A stretch of 60,141 bases of DNA from a virus (IMGVR_UViG_3300017767_000010:1-60141), one strand, 5' to 3'. Positions 504-22,003 are shown, counted from the stretch's first letter. The notes: generated by a model from the letters alone, not told the origin. Translations and numbers: made by a program.

Positions 504-504
504 T

Positions 505-639: not shown

Positions 640-641
640 TC

Positions 642-1273: not shown

Positions 1274-1275
1274 TT

Positions 1276-1377: not shown

Positions 1378-1601
1378 TGGCTTATAAACTCAGCAAGAGT
1401 GGTAAAGTAAAGAAAAAGAAAAGAGATCTTAAATTTGCTAAAACCACAAGAAGAACCAGAATGAAGGCTGAGAATCAAAAAAAGCGCAGAGCTGCTAAAA
1501 AGAAAGGTATAAATATAAAAGGTAAGGATTACGACCATACTAAGAAAAAATTTGTATCTATTAAAAAGAATAGAGGCGGTTTTGGTAAAGGAACTAAATA
1601 A
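1377..1601 (+). CDS. small basic protein with degenerate HNH-like motif
   Basis: 74 aa; KGKDYDH...S.KKNRG. Confidence 0.75.
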   Translation: MAYKLSKSGKVKKKKRDLKFAKTTRRTRMKAENQKKRRAAKKKGINIKGKDYDHTKKKFVSIKKNRGGFGKGTK

Positions 1602-1602
1602 T

Positions 1603-1965: not shown

Positions 1966-1972
1966 AAAAAAA

Positions 1973-2191
1973 ATGAAAAAAATAATTGCTATCTTATTGT
2001 TAATTGTATGTTATTCTTGTGCTTCTATTAAAGGACAAGCTTATATAGATGTTAATGAAAACATGGATTTTGAACCAAATGAAGATGTTAGATTTAGAAC
2101 TAGGTTTAAAGTTGGCTATAAAATATATATAGGAGAAAAGAAAACATTGTTTGAAAAAAAACAAAAACAAAAAGATAAACTATTCCAATAA
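1973..2191 (+). CDS. putative lipoprotein
   Basis: MKKIIAILLLIVCYSCAS signal peptide with lipobox-like SC; ATG at 1973. Confidence 0.7.
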   Translation: MKKIIAILLLIVCYSCASIKGQAYIDVNENMDFEPNEDVRFRTRFKVGYKIYIGEKKTLFEKKQKQKDKLFQ

Positions 2192-2215
2192 AATAATATA
2201 ATTTAATCAAATCAA

Positions 2216-3811
2216 ATGGGAGTACAATTCGGTGGGCCTAAAATAGTAAAGGCCCTTAGTTTTAAAAAAGAAGCCAAAGATGGCCTTATTAAAGGTATTA
2301 AAAAGCTATCGGATGCAGTGTCAGTAACACTTGGTGCATCTGGTAGAACAGTAGTTTTAGAAGATGACTTTGGTAATCCTCACGTAACAAAAGACGGTGT
2401 TACAGTAGCAAGCTACGTAAACCTAGAAGATCCACTGGAAAATCTAGGTGCTACTATGCTAAAGCAAGCCGCAAAACAAACAGCAACAAAAGCAGGCGAC
2501 GGAACAACAACATCTACAGTACTAGCTGAAAACATAATGAAAAGCTACTTTAATTTAAAAGGAGAAGATTTTTCATTTAGAGATATTAAAAGCGGTATAG
2601 ATAAGTTTGTAAAAAAAGTCGTAGAGTTTTTAAATAAAAAAGCATCACCGGTAGATGAAAAGATGTTAAATCATGTATCTACCATTTCTTGTAACAACGA
2701 CAAAGAACTTGGCAACTTTATAGCAGATGCGTTTAAATTAGCAGGTGAAAACGGTGTAGTAACAATGGAAACATCACCGACAAATGAAACCTATATAGAT
2801 TCAATAAACGGTACACATATAAAGTCAATAAGTAAAAGTATACATTTTTATACTAATAGGGAAAAAGAAGTGTCGGAGCTTGAGAAGCCATTAATATTTT
2901 TATGTGCTTCTGATATAGATAATATCCGACGTATTCAACCAATCTTGGAGTTCGCGATCAAGTCCAACCAATCGTTGTTACTCATTGCCCCTTGCGATCA
3001 GCAAATCATTTCAGCATTAGCGATGAATTTCGTAAAGGGCAATATACGTTGCAATGTTATCGATCCACCTTCTTTCGGACTTAAAAGAAAGGATATATTA
3101 GATGACATTGCCCTTTTAACGGGTGCAACTGTTATAGATGAAAATCTAGGTGACTCACTAGATAACATTACATCAGACGTGCTCGGTAATGCATCAAAAG
3201 CTATAATTGATACAGATGGTACAACTGTAGCTATAGATGAGATTCCAGAAGGAGTCAAAGAAAGAGTCGAGTATCTTCAAAAACAATTAGATGAAGAAGA
3301 TCATCATATAATGAGACCACATTTAGAATATAGGCTATCTATATTGAATGGAGGTGTTTCAATGGTTTATGTTGGTGGAGATACTGAAGTGGAAGTATCA
3401 GAAAAAAAAGACAGGGTTGATGATGCAATTCATGCCGTTAGAGCTGCAAAAAAAGAAGGTATACTACCCGGGGGCGGTGTAGCACTAGTAGCAGCAGCAA
3501 ATATGGATTGGGAGTTAACACTTAATCAAGGTGAACTAAAGGGTATTGATATAATGAAAGAAGCACTTTTATCACCATACAATATGATACTAAGCAATGC
3601 AGGATTAAATCCTGAAGATTTTAAAGGTATATCATTTAAAAAAGGTGTTGACGTAATGGATGCAACCGTAAAAGATATGATAAAAGCCGGTATAGTCGAT
3701 CCACTGCTTGTAACTAAATCAGCACTATTAAATGCTGTATCAGTTGCAACTACTATACTTTCAACCGATTGTGTAATTTCAAACGTTAGAGATTATGAAA
3801 GCGATAGGTAA
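2216..3811 (+). CDS. groEL: chaperonin GroEL
   Basis: 531 aa; VTKDGVTVA, AGDGTTTS, EKKDRVDDA, GILPGGG motifs. Confidence 0.97.
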   Translation: MGVQFGGPKIVKALSFKKEAKDGLIKGIKKLSDAVSVTLGASGRTVVLEDDFGNPHVTKDGVTVASYVNLEDPLENLGATMLKQAAKQTATKAGDGTTTSTVLAENIMKSYFNLKGEDFSFRDIKSGIDKFVKKVVEFLNKKASPVDEKMLNHVSTISCNNDKELGNFIADAFKLAGENGVVTMETSPTNETYIDSINGTHIKSISKSIHFYTNREKEVSELEKPLIFLCASDIDNIRRIQPILEFAIKSNQSLLLIAPCDQQIISALAMNFVKGNIRCNVIDPPSFGLKRKDILDDIALLTGATVIDENLGDSLDNITSDVLGNASKAIIDTDGTTVAIDEIPEGVKERVEYLQKQLDEEDHHIMRPHLEYRLSILNGGVSMVYVGGDTEVEVSEKKDRVDDAIHAVRAAKKEGILPGGGVALVAAANMDWELTLNQGELKGIDIMKEALLSPYNMILSNAGLNPEDFKGISFKKGVDVMDATVKDMIKAGIVDPLLVTKSALLNAVSVATTILSTDCVISNVRDYESDR

Positions 3812-4055
3812 GTATATAGTAATATCTGAAATAAAAGAAGATATAAAGAAAACAGAAGGTGGGTTACTTCTTGCTGAAAACCACAGAGAAGATATAAGAT
3901 ACAGAACTGCTACAGTTGTATCAATTGGTACACATGTAGAAGGAATAAAAAATAGCGACAAAATTTATTACGATAGAGTCGCAGGACACAATATAGAAAT
4001 AGATAACAATATATTTAAAGTAATACAAGAACAAGACGTAATAATAGTATTATAA
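3795..4055 (+). CDS. groES: co-chaperonin GroES
   Basis: 86 aa; KTEGGLLL mobile loop, VVSIG, QDVI; overlaps groEL end. Confidence 0.9.
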   Translation: MKAIGKYIVISEIKEDIKKTEGGLLLAENHREDIRYRTATVVSIGTHVEGIKNSDKIYYDRVAGHNIEIDNNIFKVIQEQDVIIVL

Positions 4056-4504
4056 TGAACCGCTCGGATTTTATAGAAAGAGGAGAAGTTAAGGTTGATT
4101 TTTTAAAATACTATAGATTAGTTTCCAGATGGGCATGCAAACAACATGAGTTAAACATTGCTGATTTGGAATTGCTATTTTATCTCGATCCTATTAAATA
4201 TTTTACAATAGACGATTTTAAAAGCGGAACCTTGTATTACAGTTGGGATAAAACTAGATTTTACAGATTGCAAAAAAATGATTGGATTAAAAAAATTCAT
4301 AAAGGTAACGGTAGACTAGGAGATCATAACAAATACACTGTTTCAGCAAAAGGGAAAAGACTTATAAATAGAATATATAAAATATTAATAGATAAGGAAA
4401 GTTTGCCTGAATCATCGCGAAGAAACAAAATAATGAAAAGAGAAACATATATAGATAAAGTCTATTCGCAAGCAATAAGTAAATTTAACAAAAAAGATTT
4501 ATAA
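4055..4504 (+). CDS. putative winged-helix DNA-binding protein
   Basis: 149 aa; RLQKNDWI...YTVSAKGKRLI resembles a MarR-type wing. Confidence 0.6.
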   Translation: MNRSDFIERGEVKVDFLKYYRLVSRWACKQHELNIADLELLFYLDPIKYFTIDDFKSGTLYYSWDKTRFYRLQKNDWIKKIHKGNGRLGDHNKYTVSAKGKRLINRIYKILIDKESLPESSRRNKIMKRETYIDKVYSQAISKFNKKDL

Positions 4505-4833
4505 TGGCTAAAATATCATCATTTCCACAAGACACAACTGTCGAGGCTGGAGATAAACTATTAGGAACAGATGTTTCAGGTGCTACAAAAAACTTTAGTA
4601 TTACATCAATTGTACAGTCAACACCATTTGCAAGTCACGGGGGAACTACAACACATACACAGGGGTCAGCATCAGCTACATGGACAATAACTCATAATTT
4701 AAATAAATTTCCATCTGTTACAATAGTAGATTCCGAAGAAGAACAAGTATTTGGAGTTGTTGATTATCAAAGTGCTAATACAATAGTATTAACATTTTCA
4801 GCCGCAATATCAGGGAAAGCATATTTAAACTAA
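4504..4833 (+). CDS. virion/tail structural protein
   Basis: WTITHNLNKFPSVTIVD beta-rich domain, similar to the C-terminus of the next gene. Confidence 0.65.
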   Translation: MAKISSFPQDTTVEAGDKLLGTDVSGATKNFSITSIVQSTPFASHGGTTTHTQGSASATWTITHNLNKFPSVTIVDSEEEQVFGVVDYQSANTIVLTFSAAISGKAYLN

Positions 4834-4839
4834 CAAAAA

Positions 4840-5751
4840 ATGGCAATAAAACATTTAGCAAATCTCGATTTAAATAACAACGAAATAAAAAACGTTAAAG
4901 TTGATGTAGTTACTTCAGACCCAAGTGGGATGGGTGCTGCAAATGTAGGTAGAATAATCTACAATTCTGATAACAGTAGTAAGCAAATAAAATACTGGGA
5001 TGGATCAGCTTGGGTTAGTATGAAAAATACTGATACCGATGTTGACGTTAGTATAGCTAATTTAAAAGCGAGATTACCACAAATATCAGATAGTTTTACT
5101 ATAGGTGACGCTACAGATGTAACGGTAACAACATCTGGTGATTTAACTGTAACAGGTGATTTAACTGTAAGCGGTACTACAACAACTGTTAATACAGCTA
5201 CGTTAGATATTGAAGACAATATAATAACACTTAATAAAAATCAAACTGGTACTCCGGCAACTACACTGCGATCAGGTATTGAAGTTGAAAGAGGAGATTC
5301 AGCTAACGCTATATTACAGTTTAATGAAGATACAGATAAATTTGAATTTTCAATTGATGGGGGTTCAAGTTTTACTAATATAGTTGGTGTAGTAGATTCT
5401 TCAGAAACAGTAAAAGGTATAGTTGAATTAGCAACAACTGCAGAAGCAACTACAGGTACTGACACAGCAAGGGCGGTAACACCTGCTGGGCTAGCTGCTC
5501 ATAATGCAGCAAGAAGCTTTGCTGTTAATTTAGAAGCTTCAAACTCTGCTGTAGCAAAATCCACAAATACATATACAGTAACACACGGTTTAGCCACTAG
5601 AGATGTTATGGCACAAGTTTATGAAGCTGCATCTCCATATGAAACTGTACAAGTAGATATTGCTAGAGCATCAACGGGAACTATAACAGTTGCATTTTCA
5701 GATACCGTAACAGATGGAGCCTATAGAGTTCTTATCACTAAAATAGACTAA
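4840..5751 (+). CDS. tail fibre-like protein
   Basis: GDLTVxG repeats, SGIEVERG, KGIVELATTAE tail-fibre repeat, TVTHGL C-terminal domain. Confidence 0.75.
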   Translation: MAIKHLANLDLNNNEIKNVKVDVVTSDPSGMGAANVGRIIYNSDNSSKQIKYWDGSAWVSMKNTDTDVDVSIANLKARLPQISDSFTIGDATDVTVTTSGDLTVTGDLTVSGTTTTVNTATLDIEDNIITLNKNQTGTPATTLRSGIEVERGDSANAILQFNEDTDKFEFSIDGGSSFTNIVGVVDSSETVKGIVELATTAEATTGTDTARAVTPAGLAAHNAARSFAVNLEASNSAVAKSTNTYTVTHGLATRDVMAQVYEAASPYETVQVDIARASTGTITVAFSDTVTDGAYRVLITKID

Positions 5752-5757
5752 TAATAT

Positions 5758-8343
5758 ATGTCGATTAAATTTAAATCAAAATTATCCGAGTTAGATGTAG
5801 ATGGTAAAATCGTACAATCTAAACATCGGACAATAAGACATACCGACGCAGTTCAGACTTTAGAAGTTAAAGTTATAACTAAAACCACTGCACATCCATC
5901 TCATGGATCCGGTAGTAGTTATGGTTATACTATAGACGGAGTTGAAGGTGCTTATCTTGAATTAACTCCCGGTATTACATATAAGTTTGATCAATCAGAT
6001 AGTTCAAACGGTGGAACTGGTACTGGTGGTGGTGCTCATCCATTATTATTTGCAACAGCTGCAGATGCCGCAGGAAGTACTCAATATACTACAGGTGTAA
6101 CTACAAGCGGTTCACCTGGAAGTTCTGGTGCATACACACAAATTATTCCAACAACAACAACTCCCCCTATATTACATTACTATTGTTCATCTCACACTGG
6201 GATGGGTAGCTATGCTAAATTTGGTACTGGCACAGTAGGAGACACATATTCTATAAATGTAGCGACAGATGGAAGTAATGTTGACTTAAACTTAGATGCA
6301 GCAAGTGGTACAGATTCAACTGTGCAATTAACAGCTGGTTCAAATATATCACTTACTAGAAACGATGCTCAGCAAGTTACTATAGCCGCCTCAGGTGGTG
6401 CACTAACTGTACAAGAAGAAGGTTCTTCATTATCGACTGCAGCAACTACATTAAATTTTACAGGTTCAGCCGTAACCGCTTCAGGTACGGGTGCAACAAA
6501 AACAATAAATATACCCGGTGGCAGTGGGGTAACGGTACAAGAAGAAGGTAGCTCACTATCTACAGCGGGTACAACTTTAAACTTTGTTGGTTCAGGTGTA
6601 ACTGCTTCAGGCACAGGAGCTACTAAAACAATTACCGTAAGTGGTGGTGGAAGTAGTGGACAAGTAACAACACAATTAAATGTATCAGGAGATGGTACTA
6701 CACAAGCTACAGATGGATCAAGAACTGCATTTACAATATCATCTGCTCCTGCTTCTGAAAACAATTTACAAATATATTTAGACGGTGTTTACCAGGCAAA
6801 AAGTGATTTTTCTGTAAGTGGAACAACTGTAACACTAGATGCTGCTCCAGCAACAGGAACTGTATTAGAAATAATACACTTTACTGTTATAGATGCTAAT
6901 ATATTTTTACAATCACATACTACAGCAAATAACAGTACAACCTCGTTTTCGGCAGGTGGAGTTATAGCAAATGAAAACGATACACAGGTTTACATAGATG
7001 GAGTTTATCAAAGTAAAAGTAATTATTCTGTTTCTGGAAGTAATGTAGTTTTAAGTACTGCACCCGCAACAGGAGCTGTTGTTGAAATAGTAAATATAAA
7101 AGCTAGTACAACATCATCTGGTTCTATAACTTGGGAAACAGGAATTAAAACATCTAGTTTTACTGCAGCAGCAGGTAAAGGGTATTTTGTAAATACAACA
7201 TCAGGGGCTGTAACGGTTAGTTTACCAGCAGGAAGTGCTGGAGAAGAAATACACTTTACGGACTACGCAAGCACATTTGATACCAATTCACTGATACTAG
7301 ATGCAAATGGTAGTCAAAAAATACAAGGAGGCACAGCTAATAAGCAATGTACTACAGAAAATGCTACTGTAAGATTAATATATCAAGATGATACTAAAGG
7401 TTGGACTGCTGATAATATTCTTATACCTCCAGTTACTGTAAATTATTTAGTTATTGCAGGAGGTGGAGCAGGTGGCGGTTATTATAGAGCTGGAGGCGGT
7501 GGTGCCGGTGGTTTAAGAACATCTTATGGTTCAGCTTCCGGTGGTGGGGGATCAGCAGAAAGTGCTTTAAGCCTAGCGGCTGCAACAAATTTTACTGTTA
7601 CCGTAGGTGCTGGTGGTGCCGGAGCTGCTTTCTCAGCTAGCAATGGTGGTAGTGGATCAGATTCTGTATTTTCTACTATAACATCCACAGGTGGTGGAGG
7701 TGGAGGTAGATATACTGGTAGTACTGGAACAGCTGGAGCTGCGGGTGGATCCGGTGGTGGTGGTGGCGGTGATAGTACCGGTGGCGCTGCTGGTGCTGGA
7801 ACTGCAAACCAAGGTTATGCTGGAGGAGCTGGAGCTGGATCCGGTGTACAATGTGGCGGCGGCGGCGGTGGTGCAGGTGCTGTTGGTCAGGCTGGTGGCG
7901 GTGGTGCAGAATCAGGAGATGGCGGTGATGGTATTCAATCTGCTATTTTAAATTATGCTAACGCAGGAACCGCAAGTGTAGGTGAACAAATAAGCGGATC
8001 ACAAGTATGGTATGCAGGTGGTGGTGGTGGTGGTAGTTATAGTTCTGGAAATGATACAATACCCGGTAAGGGTGGTGGAGGTGAAGGAACTGCTCAATCA
8101 AATTACCCTGGTAATGGTAGTAATGCTGACGCTAATACCGGTGGCGGAGGTGGAGGTGCTTCTGGAGACGCAGGTATTGTTGGTGGAACAGGTGGTTCAG
8201 GTGTAGTTATATTAAGATACCCTTCATCAAACACAGTAACTGTAGGATCGGGCTTAACAGAATCGAGTGGTTCACCTTTTACTGAAGGATCTGATAAAAT
8301 ATCTGTATTTACTGCAGGTACTGGAACAATAACATTTAGTTAA
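5758..8343 (+). CDS. modular glycine-rich tail fibre protein
   Basis: 861 aa; YYCSSHTGMG domain, duplicated TVQEEGSSLSTA and YLDGVYQ modules, C-terminal poly-Gly domain ending GGSGVVILRY. Confidence 0.8.
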   Translation: MSIKFKSKLSELDVDGKIVQSKHRTIRHTDAVQTLEVKVITKTTAHPSHGSGSSYGYTIDGVEGAYLELTPGITYKFDQSDSSNGGTGTGGGAHPLLFATAADAAGSTQYTTGVTTSGSPGSSGAYTQIIPTTTTPPILHYYCSSHTGMGSYAKFGTGTVGDTYSINVATDGSNVDLNLDAASGTDSTVQLTAGSNISLTRNDAQQVTIAASGGALTVQEEGSSLSTAATTLNFTGSAVTASGTGATKTINIPGGSGVTVQEEGSSLSTAGTTLNFVGSGVTASGTGATKTITVSGGGSSGQVTTQLNVSGDGTTQATDGSRTAFTISSAPASENNLQIYLDGVYQAKSDFSVSGTTVTLDAAPATGTVLEIIHFTVIDANIFLQSHTTANNSTTSFSAGGVIANENDTQVYIDGVYQSKSNYSVSGSNVVLSTAPATGAVVEIVNIKASTTSSGSITWETGIKTSSFTAAAGKGYFVNTTSGAVTVSLPAGSAGEEIHFTDYASTFDTNSLILDANGSQKIQGGTANKQCTTENATVRLIYQDDTKGWTADNILIPPVTVNYLVIAGGGAGGGYYRAGGGGAGGLRTSYGSASGGGGSAESALSLAAATNFTVTVGAGGAGAAFSASNGGSGSDSVFSTITSTGGGGGGRYTGSTGTAGAAGGSGGGGGGDSTGGAAGAGTANQGYAGGAGAGSGVQCGGGGGGAGAVGQAGGGGAESGDGGDGIQSAILNYANAGTASVGEQISGSQVWYAGGGGGGSYSSGNDTIPGKGGGGEGTAQSNYPGNGSNADANTGGGGGGASGDAGIVGGTGGSGVVILRYPSSNTVTVGSGLTESSGSPFTEGSDKISVFTAGTGTITFS

Positions 8344-8345
8344 TT

Positions 8346-8714
8346 ATGGCACATTACGCTTTTTTAAATATGCAAAATATCGTTACTGAATTAATAGTAG
8401 GTAAAGAAGAAACAGAAGGGCCAATAAATTGGGAAATGCATTATGGTAATATTCGTGAACAAGTTTGCAAACGAACATCTTATAATACTATAGGGGGAAC
8501 ACATAAAAATGGGGGAACTCCTTTTAGAAAAAACTATGCTGGCATAGGATTTACTTATGACTACACAAAAGATGCATTTATACCTCCTAAACCTTTTAAT
8601 AGTTGGAAATTAAATTCTAACTCATGTATGTGGGAAGCGCCCACAGCGCGTCCTAATGATGATAAGATATATATATGGGACGAAGATAATAAAGAATGGA
8701 TTTTAACAGAATAA
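8346..8714 (+). CDS. conserved partner of Gly-rich tail protein
   Basis: MAHYA...RTSYN...FRKNYAGIG...DAFIPPKP...WEAP, a family usually adjacent to Gly-rich fibre genes. Confidence 0.75.
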   Translation: MAHYAFLNMQNIVTELIVGKEETEGPINWEMHYGNIREQVCKRTSYNTIGGTHKNGGTPFRKNYAGIGFTYDYTKDAFIPPKPFNSWKLNSNSCMWEAPTARPNDDKIYIWDEDNKEWILTE

Positions 8715-8718
8715 TAAA

Positions 8719-9093
8719 ATGGCATTAACAAAAGTAACACATAACGTATTAGAAAATAGATACACAGCAATCAATGCTATTGGTACTACCTCTGGTGGAT
8801 TTAATATTGACTTTTCTTTAGGGGTTGTTCATACTATAACATTAGGAGGTGCTCATACAGGCACGTTTATTAATTTTAAAGTTGGACAAGTAATTGATAT
8901 AATTATAACAGGAGATTATGCATTAACGCTTAGTGCAACTGCATCGGGTACCCCATCTATAAATAAAATTGGTTCTACTGATTATGCTGGAGCATCTACA
9001 AATGTTATACAAGTAGTTTGTACATCAGCTAGTAGCTCAACACCCCAATTTTTATATTCAGTAAATACATACGCAAGCGATACAACACCATAA
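8719..9093 (+). CDS. tail-associated structural protein
   Basis: 124 aa, beta-rich, MALTKV start. Confidence 0.7.
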   Translation: MALTKVTHNVLENRYTAINAIGTTSGGFNIDFSLGVVHTITLGGAHTGTFINFKVGQVIDIIITGDYALTLSATASGTPSINKIGSTDYAGASTNVIQVVCTSASSSTPQFLYSVNTYASDTTP

Positions 9094-9097
9094 TAAT

Positions 9098-9595
9098 ATA
9101 AAAGCACGAATAGAATCAGGCAAAATTATAAAATATCCTACTTTACCAAATTCATTTAAAAGTGGAGGTGTAGTTGTTGAAAATTTTAGCAAAGCAAGTA
9201 ATGATGTTTTAGAATCTTATGGTTTTTATGATATAGTTATTCCAACCTATGATAGCAAAACAGAATATATACATAATTTACGTACTGTTGACGATTATAA
9301 AGATTCGGAAGGTAATACTAAAACGGTTTTTACTTATGATGTAAGTGAAAAAACTTTCACTGAATCTCTTGTTGAATTAAAAAAAATTAAAATACAACAA
9401 TTAAAATCTTTAGCTAATCAAAAATTACAACCAACAGATTGGTATATAATTAGAAAAATAGAAAAAGGATCATCTATCCCAGATAATATACAAACACAAA
9501 GAAATAACATAAAAAGTCAGGTAGATACTCAAGAAGCATCTATTAATTCTAAAACAAATAAATTAGATGTGTTTAACTTTGAAATAAATTTATAA
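9098..9595 (+). CDS. putative tail fibre assembly chaperone, ATA start
   Basis: 165 stop-free codons exactly filling the gap: IKARIESGKIIKYP...LQPTDWYIIRKIEKGSSIP; no in-frame ATG; absent from ORF track. Confidence 0.8.
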   Translation: MKARIESGKIIKYPTLPNSFKSGGVVVENFSKASNDVLESYGFYDIVIPTYDSKTEYIHNLRTVDDYKDSEGNTKTVFTYDVSEKTFTESLVELKKIKIQQLKSLANQKLQPTDWYIIRKIEKGSSIPDNIQTQRNNIKSQVDTQEASINSKTNKLDVFNFEINL

Positions 9596-12397
9596 ATGTC
9601 TTTAGGGAAAAAAATATTTCATCAAAATCCAGCAGCAACAGGCGATGTAGATGCAGCGCAAGGGCTAGTTATACATGTGGATGCTAATGATGAGGATAGC
9701 ATTGAAAGCGGAGGTGCTAATACAGGTGCAGGAAGTGGTACTTGGTTTGATATAGCTAACCACAATTTAAATGTACCTTTAGCGGATAAAGCAGATAATT
9801 TACAATTACATCTTAATGCAAGTGATACAACTTCCTATGGGGGTAGTGGCTCAACTTGGACAGATATAAGTGGAAATTCAAGAAACGGTACAATCAATGG
9901 TGGTGTTGAAAGCACTTATACAACAGATCTAAGAGGAAGTTTTGATTTAGTAAAAAACTCCGGAGATTATTTTGAAATTCCACATCATAATGATATTAGT
10001 CCTAGTTCAAACGGGGTAACTTTTGAATCATGGGTAACACCTGATAATATAAACACTACTAACAATATTTTTTATATTGGTAATGATTCAGGTTATGGAG
10101 AATTTTCAGGAGGTACAAATAATGCTACAGCTTTTATTACTACAATGACTTCAAGTGCTTATGTAAATAATGTAGCTACAGGTAATGTTATAACAGCTGG
10201 AAAATTACATCATATTGTTTTTACAATGAGTAATGTAACAAATCCTGTAGTTAATATATATGTTGATGGTACATTATCAGTAACAAACACAGGTTCAGGT
10301 ACAGTAATTGATACCAATGGAAATTTAAAAATAGGTAGATACACAACAGGAAATGCAAATGATTTTGATGGTAAAATACATGCAATAAGAGTTTATAATA
10401 CAGTACTTACAGCATCAGAAGTAGCACAAAACTTTAGAGCAGGTAATTTTTTAAGCTATAGTTCTTTAGTTACTTCTAAAGACCAAGCAAATCCAGGTTC
10501 ATTATATACAAGTAATTTAGCATTTCATTTAGATGCAAATGGTCATTCAGGTACATATTGGACTGATAGTGCTAGTAGTATTAATGGTACAATTAGTGGA
10601 GCAACCTATGTTAACGATAATAATTCAGATTATTTTACTTTTGATGGAAGTAATGACACTGTAACTTTTCCAGCTTCTGATACTTCACCTGTAAATTTTT
10701 CAAGTGAAACTCATACAATAGAATTTTGGGTAAATTTTAATAATTTAGCTGATGATGATGTAATAGTAGGAAAATTTGGTGGTAGCAATACTTTAAAATC
10801 TTTTCAAATACAAGTATCAAATAGTAATAAAATAACAGTATTAGAAAGAGATGGCAGCTCAAATAATACTTTTGAAACTACCGGCACATTTTCAAATGGG
10901 ACTTGGGCACATTTTACATATGTAAGGTCAGCATCTCAAGTAATATTATATATAAATGGTGCATTAGACGCTACACATTCTGCATCAAATGCTATAAATG
11001 CAGGTTCTACTCAAGACATAACAATAGGTAATCAAGCCGGTGCAAGTGTTTATTTTGATGGTAAATTAGCTCAGGTAAGAATTTATAGTTCTACTTTAAA
11101 TTCTTCACAAGTAAAAACTAATTACAATGCTACTAAAGCATTATATCAAAATCCTACTTTGCAAATGAATCTATTAGGTTCAGCATATACAAGTGGTACA
11201 ACTTGGAGTGATTCAGCTAATAGTAATGATGGCACAATATCAAACGGAAGTGCTTCTTTTGATAAAGAACTAGGTAATTTTTTAGTCTTTGACGGCAGTC
11301 CAAGATTAACTGTTCCAATGTTTTCAGCATTATCGACTGCCACCATTTTTTCTATAGAATTATGGTTTAAATCATCCACAGCAACAAGTGATGGAATGAT
11401 AATGAATGTTTATAATGGGGCTGGTACTACTGAAAGTAAATTTAGTTTAAGTTGGAACGGTAATAAATTTAGATGGGTAGTATACGGTGGTTCAAATAAT
11501 GGTTACGATGCGTCCCAGGATTTATTTACTACAAATACCTTTTCAACAAATACTTGGCTTCATGTAGTTGCAACGTATAGCTATGACTCTGAAATGAAAA
11601 TATATGTAAATGGAGTTTTAGAAGGTGCAGAAGGAGATCCTGATCACGGAGTAAGTACAAATTCAAGTACACAAATTAGATGGAGTGATAGAAGTGATGG
11701 ATATGGTGTAGATACACAAATAGGAGAAACTCGTATTTATACTGGTGTACTTACACAAGCACAAGTAGCACAAAACTATTTAGCTAAAAAGAATGATTAT
11801 CCTAATGGATTTAATTTTTCAATTAATAGCGCTACTTTTTCAACAAATTCAAGTCCAGCATACAACTATTTTCGTTCTGATGCTGCTGCTGAAAAACTTA
11901 CATCTGGTACTGTGGATATTGACATAAGTATGGGTATGACTGTTTCCGTATGGTTAAGAAGACACGCTACAACAGGGACATATCAGCAACAGTTTAGAAT
12001 GACAGGAGATGGCTTTACATCTTATTTATTTATGATTGCTGGAAATGGAGATACAAGGTATTTTTATTCCGATGGTACAGGAAATGTAATTAATACAGCA
12101 GCAGGTTTTGGAGATTGGACAACGGATTGGATAAATATAATTCACGTGAGAGAAGCAAATGGAGCAGGTACAACTAACAACAGGGGAGAAATATATTTAA
12201 ACGGAGTTTCTGGACATACACAAACTGATTTAACAGCAGCAACAAATATCACAAGCATTGGGTTTGGAAATAATTTGACTTCAAGTAGAGTTGACAATGT
12301 TGATTCCGGTATGTTAAAACTATTTCAAAGACCATTTTCTGATGCAGAAGCATTAGCTGAATTTAACGCAACAAAAGCAACGTTTGGTATATCATAA
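9596..12397 (+). CDS. LamG/concanavalin A-like multidomain tail or receptor-binding protein
   Basis: 933 aa; repeated LHLDA...WTD...IYVDG...FDGKI..RVYN.VLT..EV units. Confidence 0.85.
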   Translation: MSLGKKIFHQNPAATGDVDAAQGLVIHVDANDEDSIESGGANTGAGSGTWFDIANHNLNVPLADKADNLQLHLNASDTTSYGGSGSTWTDISGNSRNGTINGGVESTYTTDLRGSFDLVKNSGDYFEIPHHNDISPSSNGVTFESWVTPDNINTTNNIFYIGNDSGYGEFSGGTNNATAFITTMTSSAYVNNVATGNVITAGKLHHIVFTMSNVTNPVVNIYVDGTLSVTNTGSGTVIDTNGNLKIGRYTTGNANDFDGKIHAIRVYNTVLTASEVAQNFRAGNFLSYSSLVTSKDQANPGSLYTSNLAFHLDANGHSGTYWTDSASSINGTISGATYVNDNNSDYFTFDGSNDTVTFPASDTSPVNFSSETHTIEFWVNFNNLADDDVIVGKFGGSNTLKSFQIQVSNSNKITVLERDGSSNNTFETTGTFSNGTWAHFTYVRSASQVILYINGALDATHSASNAINAGSTQDITIGNQAGASVYFDGKLAQVRIYSSTLNSSQVKTNYNATKALYQNPTLQMNLLGSAYTSGTTWSDSANSNDGTISNGSASFDKELGNFLVFDGSPRLTVPMFSALSTATIFSIELWFKSSTATSDGMIMNVYNGAGTTESKFSLSWNGNKFRWVVYGGSNNGYDASQDLFTTNTFSTNTWLHVVATYSYDSEMKIYVNGVLEGAEGDPDHGVSTNSSTQIRWSDRSDGYGVDTQIGETRIYTGVLTQAQVAQNYLAKKNDYPNGFNFSINSATFSTNSSPAYNYFRSDAAAEKLTSGTVDIDISMGMTVSVWLRRHATTGTYQQQFRMTGDGFTSYLFMIAGNGDTRYFYSDGTGNVINTAAGFGDWTTDWINIIHVREANGAGTTNNRGEIYLNGVSGHTQTDLTAATNITSIGFGNNLTSSRVDNVDSGMLKLFQRPFSDAEALAEFNATKATFGIS

Positions 12398-14412: not shown

Positions 14413-14626
14413 AAACTCTATAGAAGAGTTAATAAAAGTTATGAATAAAAAAATGGATCCAGAAGAATTAGATCCTGAAAAAGTAAAAATATCAGCATCA
14501 GCCTATAGATTAGCTATGGAAGACGCTATAGCTATGATGGCTAAAGTAGAAGAACTTAACAGTGTAGGAAAAGAAGACAACCCTAAAAAACAAGAATTCT
14601 TCGGTGTAGAAGATCGTATTAAATAA
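14369..14626 (+). CDS. putative terminase small subunit
   Basis: 85-aa helical protein directly upstream of and coupled to terL. Confidence 0.5.
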   Translation: MDVKKTRERLLKAAENSIEELIKVMNKKMDPEELDPEKVKISASAYRLAMEDAIAMMAKVEELNSVGKEDNPKKQEFFGVEDRIK

Positions 14627-16866
14627 TGTATAATCAAACCTTATATAAGATACACACCGAACATTTATCATCTAAATTAGTTAAAAATAATAATAGATAT
14701 AAAAAATTCGAGTACGGTTATAATAAAGATTTAGATTGTGTTGTTATAAGTAAAGACGGTACAATAGGTGAAATATATGAAATACAAGGATTAAAAATTG
14801 CACTTCCTTTAATACCTAAAGAAATTAATGGTAAAGAATTAAAAAAAGAAGATCAAGTATTTATTCAAACACCTAAACCAGCTACACTTAAAAAAATAAA
14901 AAGTATATATAATTTTAAGTCGTATAATGAGGATATAAAAGAAAAGTATTATGAATATATTAACAAGGAGTTTGATTTTCGTTCTGATGGTTACTGGTTC
15001 ATGTGCAACGGTGAGCCATGTTACCTCACCGGCTCCCATTATATATACCTCAATTGGACAAAGATCGATGTGGGTTCACCCGATTTTAGACACGCAAACA
15101 GATTATTTTTTTATTTCTGGGAGGCGTGCAAGGCGGATTATAGGTGTTATGGAATGTGCTACCTCAAGAACAGACGGTCTGGTTTCTCCTTTATGGCGAG
15201 TTCGGAAGTTGTCAACGTGGCAACTGTTACCAGAGATGCAAGATTTGGGATACTTTCAAAGACTGGAGGAGACGCGAAGAAGATGTTCACGGATAAGGTT
15301 GTCCCAATTTCCACGAACTACCCATTCTTTTTTAAACCAATACAGGATGGCATGGAGAGGCCAAAGACAGAATTATCGTATAAGGTACCATCGAGAAGGC
15401 TCACAAGAAAGACGATACAAGCAACCACCTCAACCACCGAAGAGAGTGATCAAATGGGACTTGACACCACCATCGACTGGAAGAATACAGGTGACAATTC
15501 CTACGACGGGGAGAAACTACAGATCCTCGTCCATGATGAATCGGGCAAGTGGGAGAAGCCGGACAACATTCTCAATAACTGGAGGGTCACAAAGACGTGT
15601 CTCCGTCTCGGTTCGAAGATAGTTGGTAAATGTATGATGGGATCTACATCTAATGCGTTAGACAAAGGTGGTAGTAATTTTAAAAAAATTTATAATGACT
15701 CAGATCTCACAAAGAAAAAAAGAAATCGCAATGGGCAGACTGCTAGTGGATTATATGCTTTGTTCATTCCTATGGAATGGAACTTCGAAGGATTCATTAA
15801 CAAATTTGGTTTTCCTGTCTTCGACACTCCGGAAACTCCGGCTGAAGGAATTGACAGGGAGCTTATCTACAACGGAGTTATCGATCATTGGGAGAATGAA
15901 GCAGATGGGCTCAAAGATAATGCCGATGCTTTAAACGAATATTATAGACAGTTTCCTAGAACTGAAAAACATGCATTTAGAGATGAAACAAAAGAATCAA
16001 TATTTAATTTATCAAGGATATATGAACAGATAGATTTTAATGAAGAAATGGTTGCATCAGGATATGTAACAAGAGGTTCTTTTCAATGGAAGAATGGTGT
16101 TAAAAATACTAAAGTACAATTTTATCCTAATCCTGAAGGAAAATTTAGAATATCTTGGATTCTTCCAACGGATATGCAGAATAATATAGAAATTAAAAAT
16201 GGAATTAAATATCCAGGTAATAAAGCTTATGGTGCTTTTGGTTGTGATAGCTACGATATAAGTGGAACAACAGATGGTGGCGGTTCAAATGGATCGCTAC
16301 ACGGATTAACAAGTTTTTCGTTATCACCAGATGTTCCTAAGTCACAATTTTTTTTAGAATATATTGCAAGACCACAAACAGCTGAAATGTTTTTTGAAGA
16401 TGTATTAATGGCTATTATATTTTATGGTATGCCAATACTTGCAGAAAATAATAAGCCTAGATTATTATATCATTTAAAAAGAAGAGGTTATAGAGGATTC
16501 TCTATGAATCGACCAGATAAAGCTAGAAATAAATTATCTGTAACAGAAAAAGAATTAGGTGGAATTCCTAATACATCAGAAGATATAAAACAAGCACATG
16601 CGTCTGCTATAGAATCCTATATAGAAAACAATGTAGGCATAACAGATGAAGAACATGGTAGAATGTATTTTCAAAGAACACTTGAAGATTGGTCTAAGTT
16701 TAATATTAACAATAGAACAAAGTTTGATGCTTCAATAAGTAGTGGTTTAGCTATAATGGCTTGCCAAAGACATTTATATGCTCCAAGAGCAGAAAGACAA
16801 ACAAGAAAGATAGATTTTGGATTTTCTAAATATAATAATTCAGGATTAAAAAGTAAAATATTATAA
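14626..16866 (+). CDS. terL: terminase large subunit
   Basis: Walker A-like KNRRSGFS, Walker B LVHDESGK, nuclease GCDSYD, ENNK and FDASI motifs. Confidence 0.93.
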   Translation: MYNQTLYKIHTEHLSSKLVKNNNRYKKFEYGYNKDLDCVVISKDGTIGEIYEIQGLKIALPLIPKEINGKELKKEDQVFIQTPKPATLKKIKSIYNFKSYNEDIKEKYYEYINKEFDFRSDGYWFMCNGEPCYLTGSHYIYLNWTKIDVGSPDFRHANRLFFYFWEACKADYRCYGMCYLKNRRSGFSFMASSEVVNVATVTRDARFGILSKTGGDAKKMFTDKVVPISTNYPFFFKPIQDGMERPKTELSYKVPSRRLTRKTIQATTSTTEESDQMGLDTTIDWKNTGDNSYDGEKLQILVHDESGKWEKPDNILNNWRVTKTCLRLGSKIVGKCMMGSTSNALDKGGSNFKKIYNDSDLTKKKRNRNGQTASGLYALFIPMEWNFEGFINKFGFPVFDTPETPAEGIDRELIYNGVIDHWENEADGLKDNADALNEYYRQFPRTEKHAFRDETKESIFNLSRIYEQIDFNEEMVASGYVTRGSFQWKNGVKNTKVQFYPNPEGKFRISWILPTDMQNNIEIKNGIKYPGNKAYGAFGCDSYDISGTTDGGGSNGSLHGLTSFSLSPDVPKSQFFLEYIARPQTAEMFFEDVLMAIIFYGMPILAENNKPRLLYHLKRRGYRGFSMNRPDKARNKLSVTEKELGGIPNTSEDIKQAHASAIESYIENNVGITDEEHGRMYFQRTLEDWSKFNINNRTKFDASISSGLAIMACQRHLYAPRAERQTRKIDFGFSKYNNSGLKSKIL
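14951..15622 (+). CDS. candidate nested lipoprotein-like ORF in the +1 frame of terL
   Basis: 223 stop-free codons; MNILTRSLIFVLMVTGSC N-terminus; matches a GC-rich patch. Confidence 0.45.
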   Translation: MNILTRSLIFVLMVTGSCATVSHVTSPAPIIYTSIGQRSMWVHPILDTQTDYFFISGRRARRIIGVMECATSRTDGLVSPLWRVRKLSTWQLLPEMQDLGYFQRLEETRRRCSRIRLSQFPRTTHSFLNQYRMAWRGQRQNYRIRYHREGSQERRYKQPPQPPKRVIKWDLTPPSTGRIQVTIPTTGRNYRSSSMMNRASGRSRTTFSITGGSQRRVSVSVRR

Positions 16867-16868
16867 TA

Positions 16869-19229
16869 ATGGCAGAAGCTACAGGATATACAACTCAATT
16901 TCCCAGCCAATCGGTTGATGACGCTACAAAAAATAGCGAAAAATACGGAATGGAAGTGGCAAGAGGTATAAAAAATGAGTGGTTTAGAAAGAGTGCCGGT
17001 ACAGGTAGATTCCTTCAAAACCAACGAGAATTCCATAGACTAAAATTATATGCTAGAGGTGAACAATCAACACAAAAATATAAAGATGAATTTTCTATAA
17101 ATGGTGATTTATCTTATTTAAATCTTGATTGGAAACCCGTACCTATAATTCCAAAATTTGTTGATATAGTTGTAAATGGTATGCAAGATAGATTGTTTAC
17201 AATTAAAACATTTGCACAAGATCCTTCGTCTACAAAGAAAAGAACTGATTTTGTAGAAATGATGCAGGAGGACATGAATACAAAAGATTTTATAGAGAAT
17301 ATAGATCAACAACTAGGTATTAATGTACAAAATTTTAAAAATAAAGAAATACCTGATTCAGATGAAGAATTAGAGCTTCATATGCAGCTTAATTATAAAC
17401 AAACTATTGAGCTTGCTCATGAACAAGCTATTGATAATGTATTTAAAAGAAATAATTATTATGAACTTAAAAAACGTTTAGATTATGACCAAACTGTCTT
17501 GGGTATATCTTGCGCTAAGCATACTTTTAATAATACTGATGGTATTAAACTCGAATACGTAGATCCAGCTAATTTAGTATATTCATATACAGAAGATCCA
17601 AATTTTCAAGATGTATATTACTTTGGAGAAATAAAACAAATAAAATCTAACGAACTTAAAAAACAATTTCCTGGATTATCAGATGAAGAATTTGAAGATT
17701 GTATAAAAAAATCTGGTAAAACTAATCAATACGATTATACTAATAATGATTCTGAAGATTCATATGATTCTAATACATTAACAGTATTATATTTTAATTG
17801 GAAATCTTGGGAAAAAAGTGTTTTTAAAATAAAAGAAACATCTTCTGGCGCTAAAAAAGCAATTAAAAAAGACGATAATTTTAATCCGCCTAAAGATCAA
17901 AGAACAAGATTTGAAAGAGTAGCACAAGCAAGAGAAGTTATATATGAGGGTGTTATGGTTTTAGGTGCTAATAAACTTTTAAAATAGGAAAAAGCACAAA
18001 ATATGGTTCGTCCTGATTCTAACGTGAATACTGTTATGATGAATTATATTGTTAGCTCACCTAGATTTTACAAAGGTAAAATTGAAAGCTTAGTTAGCAG
18101 GATGGTTACTTATGCTGATCTTATTCAACTAACACATTTAAAATTACAACAAGTAATACAAAGAATGACACCTTCCGGTGTATTTGTAGATGCAGACGGG
18201 TTATCTGAAATAGATTTAGGTAATGGTACAAATTATAATCCACAAGAAGCATTAAATTTATATTTTCAAACAGGATCTATTATTGGGCGTTCTATGACTG
18301 TGGATGGTGATATGAATCCTGGTAAAGTACCTATTCAAGAATTACCAGGTGGTGGTGGTCAACAATCTACACTTTTAATTCAATCATATAATTATTATTT
18401 AAATATGATAAGAGATGTGACCGGGTTAAATGAAGCTAGAGATGGTTCTGATCCAGATCCTCATGCTTTAGTTGGTGTACAAAAACTAGCAGCTGCTAAT
18501 TCAAACACAGCTACAAGGCATATATTAAATAGTTCTATGTATATAACAAGTGAACTTGCGGAGGCTATTTCTATAAGAATAAAAGATGTACTTACGTATC
18601 ATCCTCAAAGAGATGTGTTTATTAAAAGTTTAGGTAGATTTACTGTGGGAGCATTGAAAGAATTAGAAAATGTACATATGCATGATTTTGGTGTATTTAT
18701 TGAATTAGATCCTGATGAAGATGAAAAACAATTAGTTGAAAATAATATACAAGCTGCTTTATCAAGAGACCAAATACAACTAGAAGATGTAATAGATATT
18801 AGAGCAATTAAAAATATTAAATTAGCTAATCAACTATTAAAATTTAGAAGAGTAAAAAAAGCTACATTTGATCAAATAAAAGCAGAAAGAAATATTGCTG
18901 CTCAATCAGAAGCTAATGCAAAAGCGGCTCAGGCCGCTGAGATGGCAAAGGCACAATCTGAAAATATGAAAGTGCAAGCTAAAGTAAAACTTAGTGAAGC
19001 ACAGAAAAATTTTGATATTCAAAAACTTCAAAGTGAAGCTAGTGCTAAAAAAGAACTTATGCAATTTGAGTTTGATTTGAATATGAAATTAAAAAGAATG
19101 GAATTAGATTCAAAAGAAAAAGTAGAACTTAGTAAACCTATTAGAAGTGCAAAGCCTAATAAAGCATTTGAGTCTAAAGGTAATGACGTTCTAGGGGGGT
19201 TAGATCTTTCAAGATTTGAACCTAAATAA
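16869..19229 (+). CDS. portal protein, interrupted by one in-frame TAG at 17985-17987
   Basis: ORFs 16869-17987 and 18003-19229 share a frame, joined by TAG GAA AAA GCA CAA AAT; position after terL; LDWKPVPIIPKFVDIVVNG and RDVTGLNEARDG motifs. Confidence 0.88.
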
Positions 19230-19257: not shown

Positions 19258-20541
19258 ATGGAAAAGTGGAAAGTAAAAGGAATCGTCACAGACGAGCCAA
19301 AATCTAAACAACAAACAGAACAAGCTGTTTTAGATAAAGCTGTAGAAAAAGGTGAAATTGAACCAGAAGCTGCAGGCAAAAAAGATAACGAAGTTATAAA
19401 AGTTGATTTAGATAAACTAAAAAATAAAGAAAAAGATGCCGTTCAAAAGCAAAGCACAAATGAGGTATCTGTACGCGACGGATCCGAAACTAGCAAAGAA
19501 GTTCAAAAAGAAAACAAAGAGGAAACTAAAGAACCTGCCGGAGAAAATAAACAAGAAGAAAACAATAAAGGTAACAAAGAAGAACAAAGGGAAGAAGTAG
19601 ATTCTCCTATTGAACTTATAAAAGAAGAAGAAAATAAACAGCCTAAAAAAGTTGAAGATAATCAACCTAAAGTTGATCAACAGGCGGCTGAAGTAAATAA
19701 AAAGCCTGAACCAAAAGAACCTGAAATAAACTTACCAGAAAATGTTGATAAGCTAGTAAAGTTTATGGATGAAACAGGAGGTTCAATTGAAGATTATGTA
19801 GCTCTTAATAAAGACGTGTCTGCTTTAAAAGATGGGGAATTATTAAGGGAATTTTATACAAAATCTAAACCATGGGAACAATCTGAAATATCAGAATATA
19901 TGGAAGATAATTTTTCATTTACTGAAGAAGATGATCCTAAAGAAATACGTGCTAAAAAGCGCGCATATAAAGAAGAAATACATAAAGCTAAACAGTTTTT
20001 TACTGTTAACAGGGATAAATATTATGCTGACATCAAGTTGAATAAGCAAAACGAAATACCTGAACAATATGAAAATGCTTTAAAGTTTTATGAAAATTCA
20101 CAAAAGAACGAAGAAATAAACAAAGAAATAACAAATAAATTTTTGAAAAGAACAGAAAATGTTTTTAGTAATGATTTTAAAGGATTTGATTTCCAAGTTG
20201 GAAATAATAAATATAGATATAAAGTCAATAATATTACAGAAACAAAAAATGCTCAATCTAATCTTGAAAATTTTATAAATCAATTTGTAAATAGCAAAGG
20301 AGATTTAGAAAATGTAAGTGGTTACCATAAAGCTTTATTTACTGCAAGAAATGCAGATAAAATAGCTCAACATTTTTATGAGCAAGGCCGTGCCGATGCT
20401 TTACAACAAAATGCAAAAGAAGCTAAAAATATAAATATGGATCCACGAAAAGAAGGAATTTTAGAAACAAAAACAGGACAAAAATTTAGAGTTGTTTCAG
20501 GTAATTCTAGTTCAAAACTTAGAGTTAAACTTAAACAATAA
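19258..20541 (+). CDS. scaffold-like acidic protein
   Basis: 427 aa between portal and capsid; E/K-rich N-half, FMDETGGSIEDY and HFYEQGRADA motifs. Confidence 0.7.
   Translation: MEKWKVKGIVTDEPKSKQQTEQAVLDKAVEKGEIEPEAAGKKDNEVIKVDLDKLKNKEKDAVQKQSTNEVSVRDGSETSKEVQKENKEETKEPAGENKQEENNKGNKEEQREEVDSPIELIKEEENKQPKKVEDNQPKVDQQAAEVNKKPEPKEPEINLPENVDKLVKFMDETGGSIEDYVALNKDVSALKDGELLREFYTKSKPWEQSEISEYMEDNFSFTEEDDPKEIRAKKRAYKEEIHKAKQFFTVNRDKYYADIKLNKQNEIPEQYENALKFYENSQKNEEINKEITNKFLKRTENVFSNDFKGFDFQVGNNKYRYKVNNITETKNAQSNLENFINQFVNSKGDLENVSGYHKALFTARNADKIAQHFYEQGRADALQQNAKEAKNINMDPRKEGILETKTGQKFRVVSGNSSSKLRVKLKQ
19436..19600 (+). CDS. nested small basic protein, MPFKSKAQ type (+1 frame)
   Basis: MPFKSKAQMRYLYATDPKLAKKFKKKTKRKLKNLPEKINKKKTIKVTKKNKGKK; A-rich leader; N-terminus like ORF 1276-1377. 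Confidence 0.75.
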   Translation: MPFKSKAQMRYLYATDPKLAKKFKKKTKRKLKNLPEKINKKKTIKVTKKNKGKK

Positions 20542-20554
20542 AAATTTATAAAAA

Positions 20555-22003
20555 ATGAGTCTTACAACTGGAATAGAACATTTGACACCTTCGCCTAGCA
20601 AAGGCCAATTGTTCCAAGGTAATTATATTACCAATTTTGATTTTACAAACCAGTTCTTACCTGACGTTTATGAAAAGCAAGCTGAAATTTATGGAAACAG
20701 ATCTATTGGTGGTTTCTTAAAATTAGTATCTGCAGAGATGCCTTCAGCTTCCGATGAAATAAGATGGGTAGAACAAGGAAGATTACATATAGCTTACAAA
20801 AACGTAGCTATTTCAACTGTTACGTTTACAGTAACTTTTGATACATTACCTGACGGCACATCAGCCGGTACCGCACAAGTACCTGCTGTTAGAGTAGGCC
20901 AAACCATTATGGTTCAAGGTCTTACATCAGGTGGAGCTCATACGGGCCCTGTACAAAAAGGTGTTGTAACTGTAGCTGGTGCAAATGCAAACAGTACAAC
21001 AGGTACATTCCAAGCTAAATGTTTAGAAGCTGCTAACTGGAATGCTGTTACAGGCGCAGCTAGTTTTAGTAAAGCTACTGTATTAGTATATGGTTCTGAA
21101 TTTGCAAAAGGTTCTGCTGGAATGACAGGAGAAGTTGATGCAGTATATCAGTCTTATACTAATAAGCCTATGATATTAAAAGACAACTATGCTATTAATG
21201 GTTCTGATACTGCACAAATAGGATGGATTGAAGTTACTTCTGAAAACGGAGCTTCAGGATATTTATGGTATTTACAATCTGAACACGAAACTCGTCAAAG
21301 ATTTGAAGATTACTTAGAAATGTCTATGATTGAATCTGTTAAGAAAGATAGTAATTCAGCATTATCCGCTTCAGAATCACCAGGGGGTACAGAAGGTTTA
21401 TTTGCTGCATTAAGCGGTAGAGGAAATGTTTACACAGATCTTGCTGCTGATTTATCTGCATCTGGTCTTCCAATGACCGGCTTTGATACTATATTAAAGC
21501 AATTAGATAAAAACGGAGCTATTGAAGAAAACATGCTTTATATCAATAAGACATTATCTTTAGCTATTGACGACGCACTTGCTGCCAAAAACTCTTACGG
21601 TACTGGCGGTACTTCTTATGGTGTATTTAACAATAGTGAAGATATGGCATTAAACTTAGGTTTTTCAGGATTTAGAAGAGGTGGATATGACTTCTATAAA
21701 ACTGACTGGAAATATTTAAATGACTTTGGAACAAGAGGTCAATTTGGAGATATTGAAGGTGTATTAATTCCTGCTGGAACTTCTACAGTTTACGATCAAG
21801 AATTAGGTCAAAATATTAAAAGACCATTCTTGCACGTAAGATATAGAGCTTCAGAAGCTGATGATAGAAAAATGAAAACTTGGATTACAGGTTCTGTAGG
21901 TGGTGCTTATACTACTACTACAGATGAAATGCGAGTTTCATTCTTATCTGAAAGATGTTTAATAACGCAAGGAGCTAATAACTTCTTCTTATTGAAAAAC
22001 TAA
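20555..22003 (+). CDS. major capsid protein
   Basis: 482 aa after the scaffold, followed by a hairpin terminator; WVEQGRLH, GFSGFRRGGYDF, LSERCL motifs. Confidence 0.88.
   Translation: MSLTTGIEHLTPSPSKGQLFQGNYITNFDFTNQFLPDVYEKQAEIYGNRSIGGFLKLVSAEMPSASDEIRWVEQGRLHIAYKNVAISTVTFTVTFDTLPDGTSAGTAQVPAVRVGQTIMVQGLTSGGAHTGPVQKGVVTVAGANANSTTGTFQAKCLEAANWNAVTGAASFSKATVLVYGSEFAKGSAGMTGEVDAVYQSYTNKPMILKDNYAINGSDTAQIGWIEVTSENGASGYLWYLQSEHETRQRFEDYLEMSMIESVKKDSNSALSASESPGGTEGLFAALSGRGNVYTDLAADLSASGLPMTGFDTILKQLDKNGAIEENMLYINKTLSLAIDDALAAKNSYGTGGTSYGVFNNSEDMALNLGFSGFRRGGYDFYKTDWKYLNDFGTRGQFGDIEGVLIPAGTSTVYDQELGQNIKRPFLHVRYRASEADDRKMKTWITGSVGGAYTTTTDEMRVSFLSERCLITQGANNFFLLKN

Follow-up and report, generated by a model that had tools for sequence, protein, structure and literature searches.

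The window analysed here, the whole 60,141-nucleotide stretch of the virus record IMGVR_UViG_3300017767_000010 (a 60-kb marine phage record with a CheckV completeness estimate of 93%), carries at 19258..20541 a gene for a putative acidic head protein in the scaffold position and, inside this gene, on the same strand and out of frame, a second open reading frame (ORF) at 19436..19600 for a small and very basic protein. That this second ORF is a real hidden gene is strongly supported. The fuller interpretation—an authentic coding gene that sits out of frame within the scaffold-position gene, is old, lodged in a linker and independently translated, with a role in the head that is a guess—is considered very probable as a whole. 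The locus comprises the following features:

19258..20541, + strand: host gene, putative acidic head protein of 427 residues in the scaffold position, with a short N-terminal part, an acidic linker and a helical C-domain
19411..19435, + strand: A-rich leader of the nested gene, without a Shine-Dalgarno motif, inside the host coding sequence
19436..19600, + strand: nested gene, ATG start, 54 codons and a TAG stop, frame +1 of the host gene
19436..19519, + strand: conserved N-terminal module of the nested gene, residues 1–28, predicted to form two helices separated by a proline, after a short N-terminal stretch
19520..19597, + strand: Lys/Arg-rich tail of the nested gene, residues 29–54, with the LPEK motif common to stand-alone relatives

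The nested ORF lies wholly within the host ORF, and its start is offset by 178 nucleotides from the host start, which places it in frame +1. A 54-residue +1 ORF had been picked out by an earlier reading of the DNA made from the sequence alone (the sequence-only reading) and is present at 19436..19600 with the sequence as quoted there. The DNA of the ORF has a purine content of 74%, and the pairing of an acidic frame 0 with a basic +1 frame that the same reading described is borne out by computed values: the overlapped host segment has an isoelectric point of 4.64 and a net charge of −6, versus 10.8 and +21 for the nested product. In the AlphaFold2 (AF2) model of the host protein, which is largely helical with long paired helices, the predicted local distance difference test score (pLDDT) stays below 50 over residues 37–115 and 123–160, and the chain is helical beyond. 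The model thus divides into a disordered acidic linker (approximately residues 37–160) and a helical C-domain (residues 160–400). The nested gene spans host residues 60–114 and hence falls within the predicted disordered linker.

The length of the ORF lies within chance expectation: a +1 ORF of at least 54 residues beginning with ATG occurs in 69% of 5,000 shuffles in which the encoded host protein and the codon usage are preserved. The nested-gene claim, therefore, stands or falls with the comparison to relatives. Searching IMG/VR with the host protein gave 79 loci, with identities from 100% down to approximately 40%, and the pattern of the small protein's N-terminus finds the ORF in 69 of 82 sources (81 loci and the window), always inside the scaffold gene. 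Further scans, for which a more distant scaffold and an alignment of the small protein were the two queries, bring the set to 202 loci in which the 5′ end of the scaffold gene is complete. An ORF matching the family profile at an expectation value (E) of at most 1e-3 is carried by 167 of these 202 genes, in all 167 cases in frame +1; in the sets picked by scaffold similarity alone, the ORF is present in 65 of 77 and 57 of 77. The alternative frame is, accordingly, open in diverged relatives and in the same register.

A tree built from 140 unique scaffold C-domains served to map the distribution of the ORF; its two cultured outgroups are Panino, a Maribacter phage, and an elemo phage of Flavobacterium. 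The nested state is found across all three large ingroup clades, the 32 rows of the tree that lack the ORF form small terminal groups, and the scaffold genes of the Panino and elemo outgroups are devoid of it. This pattern reads as a single early gain with many losses; 19 state changes are counted by parsimony. Some of the apparent losses are broken contigs (L055, L098 and L126), and in L061 and L062 a divergent, Cys-type ORF was missed by the profile. In the loss clade L044–L050, the start is decayed, approximately 50 nucleotides are deleted and the +1 frame is full of stops; the scaffold frame is intact.

Selection in the overlap was assessed over 28 gap-free core codons in 50 unique sequences, with 282 changes classed along a minimum spanning tree; a second count gave near-identical results. 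Changes that are replacing in frame 0 and silent in +1 are 2.47 times as frequent as expected (131 observed versus 53.0), those silent in frame 0 and replacing in +1 occur at 0.80 times the expectation (56 versus 70.3), and those replacing in both frames at 0.60 times (95 versus 158.5). Dividing the first of these ratios by the second gives 3.10 for the overlap. For five control blocks of the host gene, in which a fictitious +1 frame was scored, the corresponding values range from 0.26 to 0.64. The diversity by frame-0 codon position points the same way: it amounts to 0.344/0.207/0.279 in the overlap versus 0.289/0.189/0.437 in the C-domain, which is the normal pattern. In the overlap, the wobble position of the host frame is damped, and variation peaks at the wobble position of the +1 frame. 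Substitution classes and codon-position diversity together thus show a tighter constraint on the nested frame than on the host frame: within the overlap, purifying selection acts more strongly on the nested frame, beyond anything the host frame itself demands.

The start of the nested gene resembles the other gene starts of the window. The leader is A-rich, as the sequence-only reading had remarked, with 75% A at positions −20 to −1 of the nested ATG versus a mean of 53% for the window's 39 gene starts. With a matrix built from these 39 starts and applied to the 25 nucleotides before each ATG, the nested start scores 4.12 bits versus a leave-one-out median of 3.10 for the real starts, a score that only 2.4% of 846 internal ATGs attain. 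Positions −14 to −12 of the leader are nearly invariant among relatives, and the ATG is invariant in all unique cores, so that a conserved start codon goes together with a usable initiation context. The leaders of this genome are A/T-rich and carry no Shine-Dalgarno motif; these leaders and the nearest cultured relatives, which infect Flavobacterium and Maribacter, would fit a Bacteroidota-type host. The nested gene would be translated on its own from the internal ATG, by way of an A-rich leader lacking a Shine-Dalgarno motif like those of the other genes, and its product would be made from the late head-module mRNA along with the scaffold protein.

A different route into the +1 frame would be frameshifting or transcriptional slippage in an A-rich run, resulting in scaffold residues 1–59 joined to the basic peptide. 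A-rich runs do lie just upstream, and two database entries have the look of such products: P0123, which joins a scaffold N-terminus to the module, and P0137, which joins the module to a scaffold C-domain. Against this stand the invariance of the ATG, the start of the relatives at M-P-F (144 of the 150 listed) and a start context scoring above the median real start. Moreover, the in-frame fusion is found in 0 of 80 loci related to P0137, and its closest relative, at 91% identity, features two separate frames. Frameshifting or slippage is hence regarded as very unlikely. P0137 was rejected as a true in-frame fusion on the basis of these 80 loci and of neighbouring contigs with broken scaffolds; the chimera is probably a homopolymer indel error in assembly, and P0123 probably an error of the same kind.

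Besides the chance-compatible length, several points weigh against the reading as an independently expressed gene. The evidence for translation is indirect: the RNA-library contigs X15, X16 and X10, which match positions 19268–19621 at 100% identity, cannot show transcription, transcript ends, strand or translation. The edges of the spanning tree are not fully independent events, a weakness that the control blocks share. The nested gene was lost repeatedly, with at least 12 changes forced on the scaffold tree, and in one genome, 92% complete, that lacks the nested copy, none is present at any other site; the gene is therefore dispensable in some lineages.

The nested product belongs to a large family of small proteins, whose profile the window ORF matches at E 9.9e-21. 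The core features of the family are an N-terminal M-P-F-K/R-S-x-x-Q motif; P17; A20-K21; an aromatic residue at 23; Tyr or Thr at 27; and a Lys/Arg-rich tail. M1, P2, F3, Q8 and P17 are invariant in one alignment (A1), and P2, F3 and Q8 in a second one of 137 rows (A2). All three marks of the family are found in the window ORF, namely the N-terminal motif, the helix–Pro–helix residues and the basic tail, here with K.LPEK, which is a trait of one subfamily. A set of 5.8 billion proteins contains 1,734 short members at E of at most 1e-3, none with a Pfam domain, and 184 longer proteins match the family profile among 8,000 candidates scored. An exhaustive profile search returned 3,544 clusters at 50% identity with E of at most 1e-3, of which 955 reach 1e-10 or better. 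Among the 150 top clusters listed, 144 have the module at the very N-terminus, starting from residue 1, in proteins of 45 to 732 residues. In the long fused forms, the C-terminal parts show weak matches to PHROGs of the tape-measure type.

Several observations concern variation within the family. A subfamily comprising L060, L066, L067, L061/L062, L082 and L155 carries two conserved cysteines (K-A-C ... P-K-W-D/H/N-C), a pairing that suggests a disulfide or a metal site. Many nested copies of a sister clade (L105–L117, L180–L182 and others) end in repeats of the type S-P-F-K-M-K-S-P-F in place of a plain Lys run, and these repeats echo the N-terminal P-F-K-S. The long fused proteins P0243, P0244, P0256 and P0335 each contain a second, partial copy of the module—its second half—near the C-terminal third, which is why two profile stretches are reported for them.

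Members of the family also occur as genes of their own. The 76 IMG/VR loci found with the small protein divide into 53 nested copies, 20 stand-alone ones and 3 long fusions. Among complete genomes, phage 023Pt_psg01 has an annotated stand-alone coding sequence (CDS) of 39 residues a few small genes after the portal gene; the Streptomyces phage FlowerPower has a stand-alone member, gp48; and the Prochlorococcus phage P-RSP2 and phage C75C1 have stand-alone copies that are unannotated. Stand-alone proteins of the form that the sequence-only reading described thus exist, both in complete phages and in the stand-alone IMG/VR loci, all of which carry the K.LPE motif. The protein and profile search it had proposed recovers stand-alone homologues, as opposed to the combination of no homologues and a closed +1 frame that it had set against itself. 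A tblastn search of cultured phages with the 54-residue protein found no match, a low-complexity filter having probably masked the query; the same search with a stand-alone relative as the query did find matches.

Nesting is not confined to scaffold genes. The Flavobacterium phage elemoE (MT497078.1; L082, 1501..1629) contains an unannotated 42-residue family ORF at 3583–3711, with the profile match at 3583–3708, in frame +1 of the 3,668-residue 'structural protein' CDS 3..11006 and far from the elemoE scaffold gene. Three IMG/VR loci hold nested copies inside ORFs of 1,726 to 2,241 residues and one inside an ORF of 678 residues, all of them in frame +1. The giant host proteins belong to at least two families, with L202 resembling the elemoE protein and L242 resembling L243, and none of them resembles the large proteins of the window. 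At the nested start, the host frame always reads (D/N/Y)AVQ..., since the conserved +1 codons spell this peptide one base earlier. A second, partial frame-0 motif, QEDAVQKQ, is located in the elemoE giant protein approximately 120 codons upstream of the nested copy.

This recurrence of the frame-0 motif in scaffold and giant proteins, and twice in the elemoE giant protein, would fit an explanation in which the +1 ORF, of a length expected by chance (P = 0.69), is an untranslated by-product and the selected object is the frame-0 (D/N)AVQ.Q... peptide, for example as a cleavage or targeting site in head-interior proteins. The substitutions, however, favour +1 over frame 0, and this preference is reversed in the five control blocks. 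The 23 unique stand-alone genes retain the protein although the host-like frame is closed in 20 of them (it is free of stops in 3, and the other frame in 2); as these genes keep the +1 protein without a second frame, the frame-0 peptide is not the selected object. A GC-rich Streptomyces phage likewise keeps the amino-acid pattern of the family. Finally, scaffolds that lost the ORF also lack the motif: DAVQ... is gone in L044–L050, where the scaffold is intact, and the scaffold therefore does not need this peptide. Taken together, the by-product explanation is scarcely credible. The sequence-only reading had expected frame-0 DAVQKQST.EV.V to be conserved on account of the +1 frame, and its absence where the ORF is lost and recurrence in other hosts agree with that expectation.

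Returning to the nested ORF as a genuine gene, its age relative to the scaffold gene can be considered. The family is far wider than the scaffold family, and distant cultured relatives align with host residues 159–426 only, the first 158 residues being without a counterpart there; the small gene is therefore the older of the two. A pre-existing small gene would have come to lie inside the linker, either by insertion or by read-through of the host frame. Read in the host frame, this purine-rich gene gives an acidic low-complexity peptide of a kind tolerable in a linker. The gene order in the two stand-alone loci L236 and L201—an ORF of approximately 630 residues, the small gene, an ORF of approximately 270 residues and a major head protein (phrog_9953, E 3e-46 and 5e-49)—is compatible with read-through from an ancestral place just upstream of the scaffold gene. 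The flanking ORFs of approximately 630 and 270 residues gave no hits, including with phmmer against the PDB, and may correspond to portal and scaffold by size and order. A de novo overprint was rejected, given the stand-alone and fused homologues in unrelated phages whose alternative frames are closed. The sequence-only reading had spoken of overprinting, with a new gene born in the scaffold; this part of it does not hold, as the small-protein family is wider and also stands alone.

The small protein was modelled with AF2 from 137 sequences. Residues 1–24 are confidently predicted, with pLDDT values of 86 to 93 over residues 1–20, and the model features two helices, at 6–15 and 17–24, placed around the invariant P17 and preceded by a short N-terminal stretch. 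The confidence of the basic tail is low (54 to 64). A complex prediction of the scaffold with the small protein gave no answer, its score of 0.00 being evidence neither way.

The genomic position of the nested gene suggests a setting among head genes. The host gene is flanked by the following genes, and the order portal, host gene, major capsid also holds in relatives:

18003..19229, + strand: C-terminal part of the portal gene, directly upstream of the host gene (phrog_6547, E 1.8e-61)
20555..22003, + strand: gene for a major capsid-type virion protein, directly downstream of the host gene (phrog_13704, head and packaging, E 3.6e-94)

A role of the product in the head interior or in head assembly is proposed tentatively, with somewhat less than even confidence. 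In its favour, the gene is encoded within or beside head genes; it is nested recurrently in genes for virion proteins; its product carries an extreme positive charge; and the module forms the N-terminus of very large proteins with weakly tape-measure-like C-termini. In this picture, a head component would be the docking site of the N-terminal helical hairpin, and DNA or acidic linkers would be the binding partners of the basic tail. A core or DNA-condensing role, as the sequence-only reading proposed, is plausible in view of the charge and the gene position.

Other results count against a function in the head. The FlowerPower copy sits between a 'peptidase' and the holin, in P-RSP2 the copy has small unnamed genes for neighbours and is remote from the head genes, and the copy in L227 comes after a tail fibre gene. 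Pfam searches of the window and of family members returned nothing meaningful; Foldseek found no fold match for the 54-residue model (best E 6); and a profile search of the PDB gave only spurious repeat-protein matches and no solved relative. The host gene itself is a candidate scaffold by position and predicted shape only: it has no match in the Pfam or PHROG libraries, Foldseek with its model found nothing at E of at most 0.001 (best E 1.7), and the homologue in elemo phages is annotated as a 'structural protein'.

The mixed contexts of the stand-alone copies in FlowerPower and P-RSP2 would also suit a real nested gene whose product is not a head component but a regulatory, host-directed or lysis accessory protein, with the nesting reflecting only that the acidic reading is tolerated. 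The gene is dispensable in several lineages, and nothing ties the product to virions, in line with such a role. It is less readily reconciled with the recurrence of nesting in virion-protein genes, both scaffold-position and giant structural; with those stand-alone copies that stand in a row of head genes, before an ORF of approximately 270 residues and the major head protein; and with the module at the N-terminus of very large proteins with tape-measure-like C-termini. A product acting outside the head is, on this evidence, quite possible, though not the favoured view.

If the head role is adopted, a more far-reaching model can be drawn, which is speculative and rather improbable: the module would be a portable 'head-interior' module, captured repeatedly in the disordered acidic linkers of scaffold proteins and of at least two families of giant virion proteins, so that charge-matched partners arise from one transcript. 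In this model, an old gene would become nested through read-through or insertion, which inverts the classical course of overprinting. Since a Lys codon becomes a Glu codon when the reading starts one base upstream, the same DNA would make a polycation and a polyanionic linker that are possibly paired.

Out-of-frame nested genes are, to our knowledge, textbook cases in tiny phages and rarely documented in tailed phages, and standard gene callers, as far as we know, forbid them. Two established examples are Rz1, which lies within Rz of phage lambda, and gene E, which lies within the scaffold gene D of phiX174; both encode lysis proteins and are held to have arisen within their host genes. The present case resembles these in that a complete small gene lies out of frame and on the same strand within a larger phage gene and has its own start; with phiX174 it further shares a scaffolding gene as the putative host. 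Unlike Rz1, a lipoprotein spanin, and E, a membrane protein, the nested product is predicted to be a soluble, very basic peptide of a family with thousands of members that occur stand-alone or fused, and it is here the nested frame that is the more constrained. Small basic DNA-associated virion proteins are represented by the J protein of phiX174 and the core proteins of adenovirus. The nested protein is comparable with them—by analogy only—in its size, its extreme positive charge and its coding beside or within head-assembly genes. It differs in having no sequence or fold relation to them, and any association of it with virions or DNA is hypothetical.

The only library family matched is phrog_1375, of unassigned function. 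The match of the window ORF is weak (E 6.9e-5, residues 3–51 aligned to positions 17–69 of the 70-position profile); 13 of 23 nested ORFs match at E of at most 0.01, stand-alone members match profile positions 17–41, and the clear family members P0121, P0122 and P0049 show no match at that threshold. By language-model features, the nearest Pfam-labelled cluster is DUF3008 (PF11450), with a score of 0.86 that serves as a lead only; members of DUF3008 presumably have a similar N-terminal start. Membership was rejected, as the DUF3008 model (cut-off 24 bits) finds nothing in the window at E of at most 10. Searches of the open-access full-text literature, subscription papers not being covered, found nothing on the nested gene or its family.

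The locus offers a clean and deeply conserved nested gene, and its many independent losses constitute a natural experiment. It further illustrates a less discussed route to gene overlap, in which a tolerant linker takes in an old gene, as distinct from the birth of a new gene within an old one. It draws attention to a phage family of small basic proteins, thousands in number, that has no Pfam entry and is widespread in marine viromes; the module of this family also forms the N-terminus of very large virion-type proteins. The copy in the cultured phage elemoE and those in P-RSP2 and C75C1 are all unannotated.

Further observations concern other parts of the window. The portal gene, 16869..19229, is broken by an in-frame TAG at 17985..17987. 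The ORF 16869..17987 is 90% identical to residues 1–372 of a relative's single 785-residue portal protein, and this relative has Trp (TGG) where the window has TAG. The only tRNAs of the window are tRNA-Gly and tRNA-Met, hence there is no suppressor tRNA; the TAG is a nonsense variant, a sequencing error or a site of read-through. Another same-strand nested ORF, of 223 residues, is located at 14951..15622 inside the ORF 14626..16866.

Two genes near the start of the window relate to the module:

1276..1377, + strand: free-standing basic ORF of 33 residues with a similar N-terminus (family profile E 0.006, 13.8 bits)
1552..1965, + strand: DUF6321 ORF (PF19846, E 3e-10), 175 nucleotides downstream of the 33-residue ORF

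The sequence-only reading had drawn a parallel between the nested ORF and the gene at 1276. The ORF exists and is 100% conserved in one near-identical relative, the sole relative checked; the likeness is weak, as its profile match indicates, and the ORF is possibly a distant paralogue. The module and DUF6321 are fused in P0184 (DUF6321 match at E 1.6e-17) and P0242 (E 5.7e-21). In these fusions, the module starts at residue 1, as in the nested protein; the window, in contrast, has separate module-like and DUF6321 genes, and its gene at 19436 has no DUF6321 part. DUF6321 is uncharacterised and is not named in the open-access literature searched. The interval 1276..1965 holds three small basic genes in a row—the 33-residue ORF, an ORF of 74 residues (phrog_6437) and the DUF6321 ORF—and may represent a split form of the module–DUF6321 protein.

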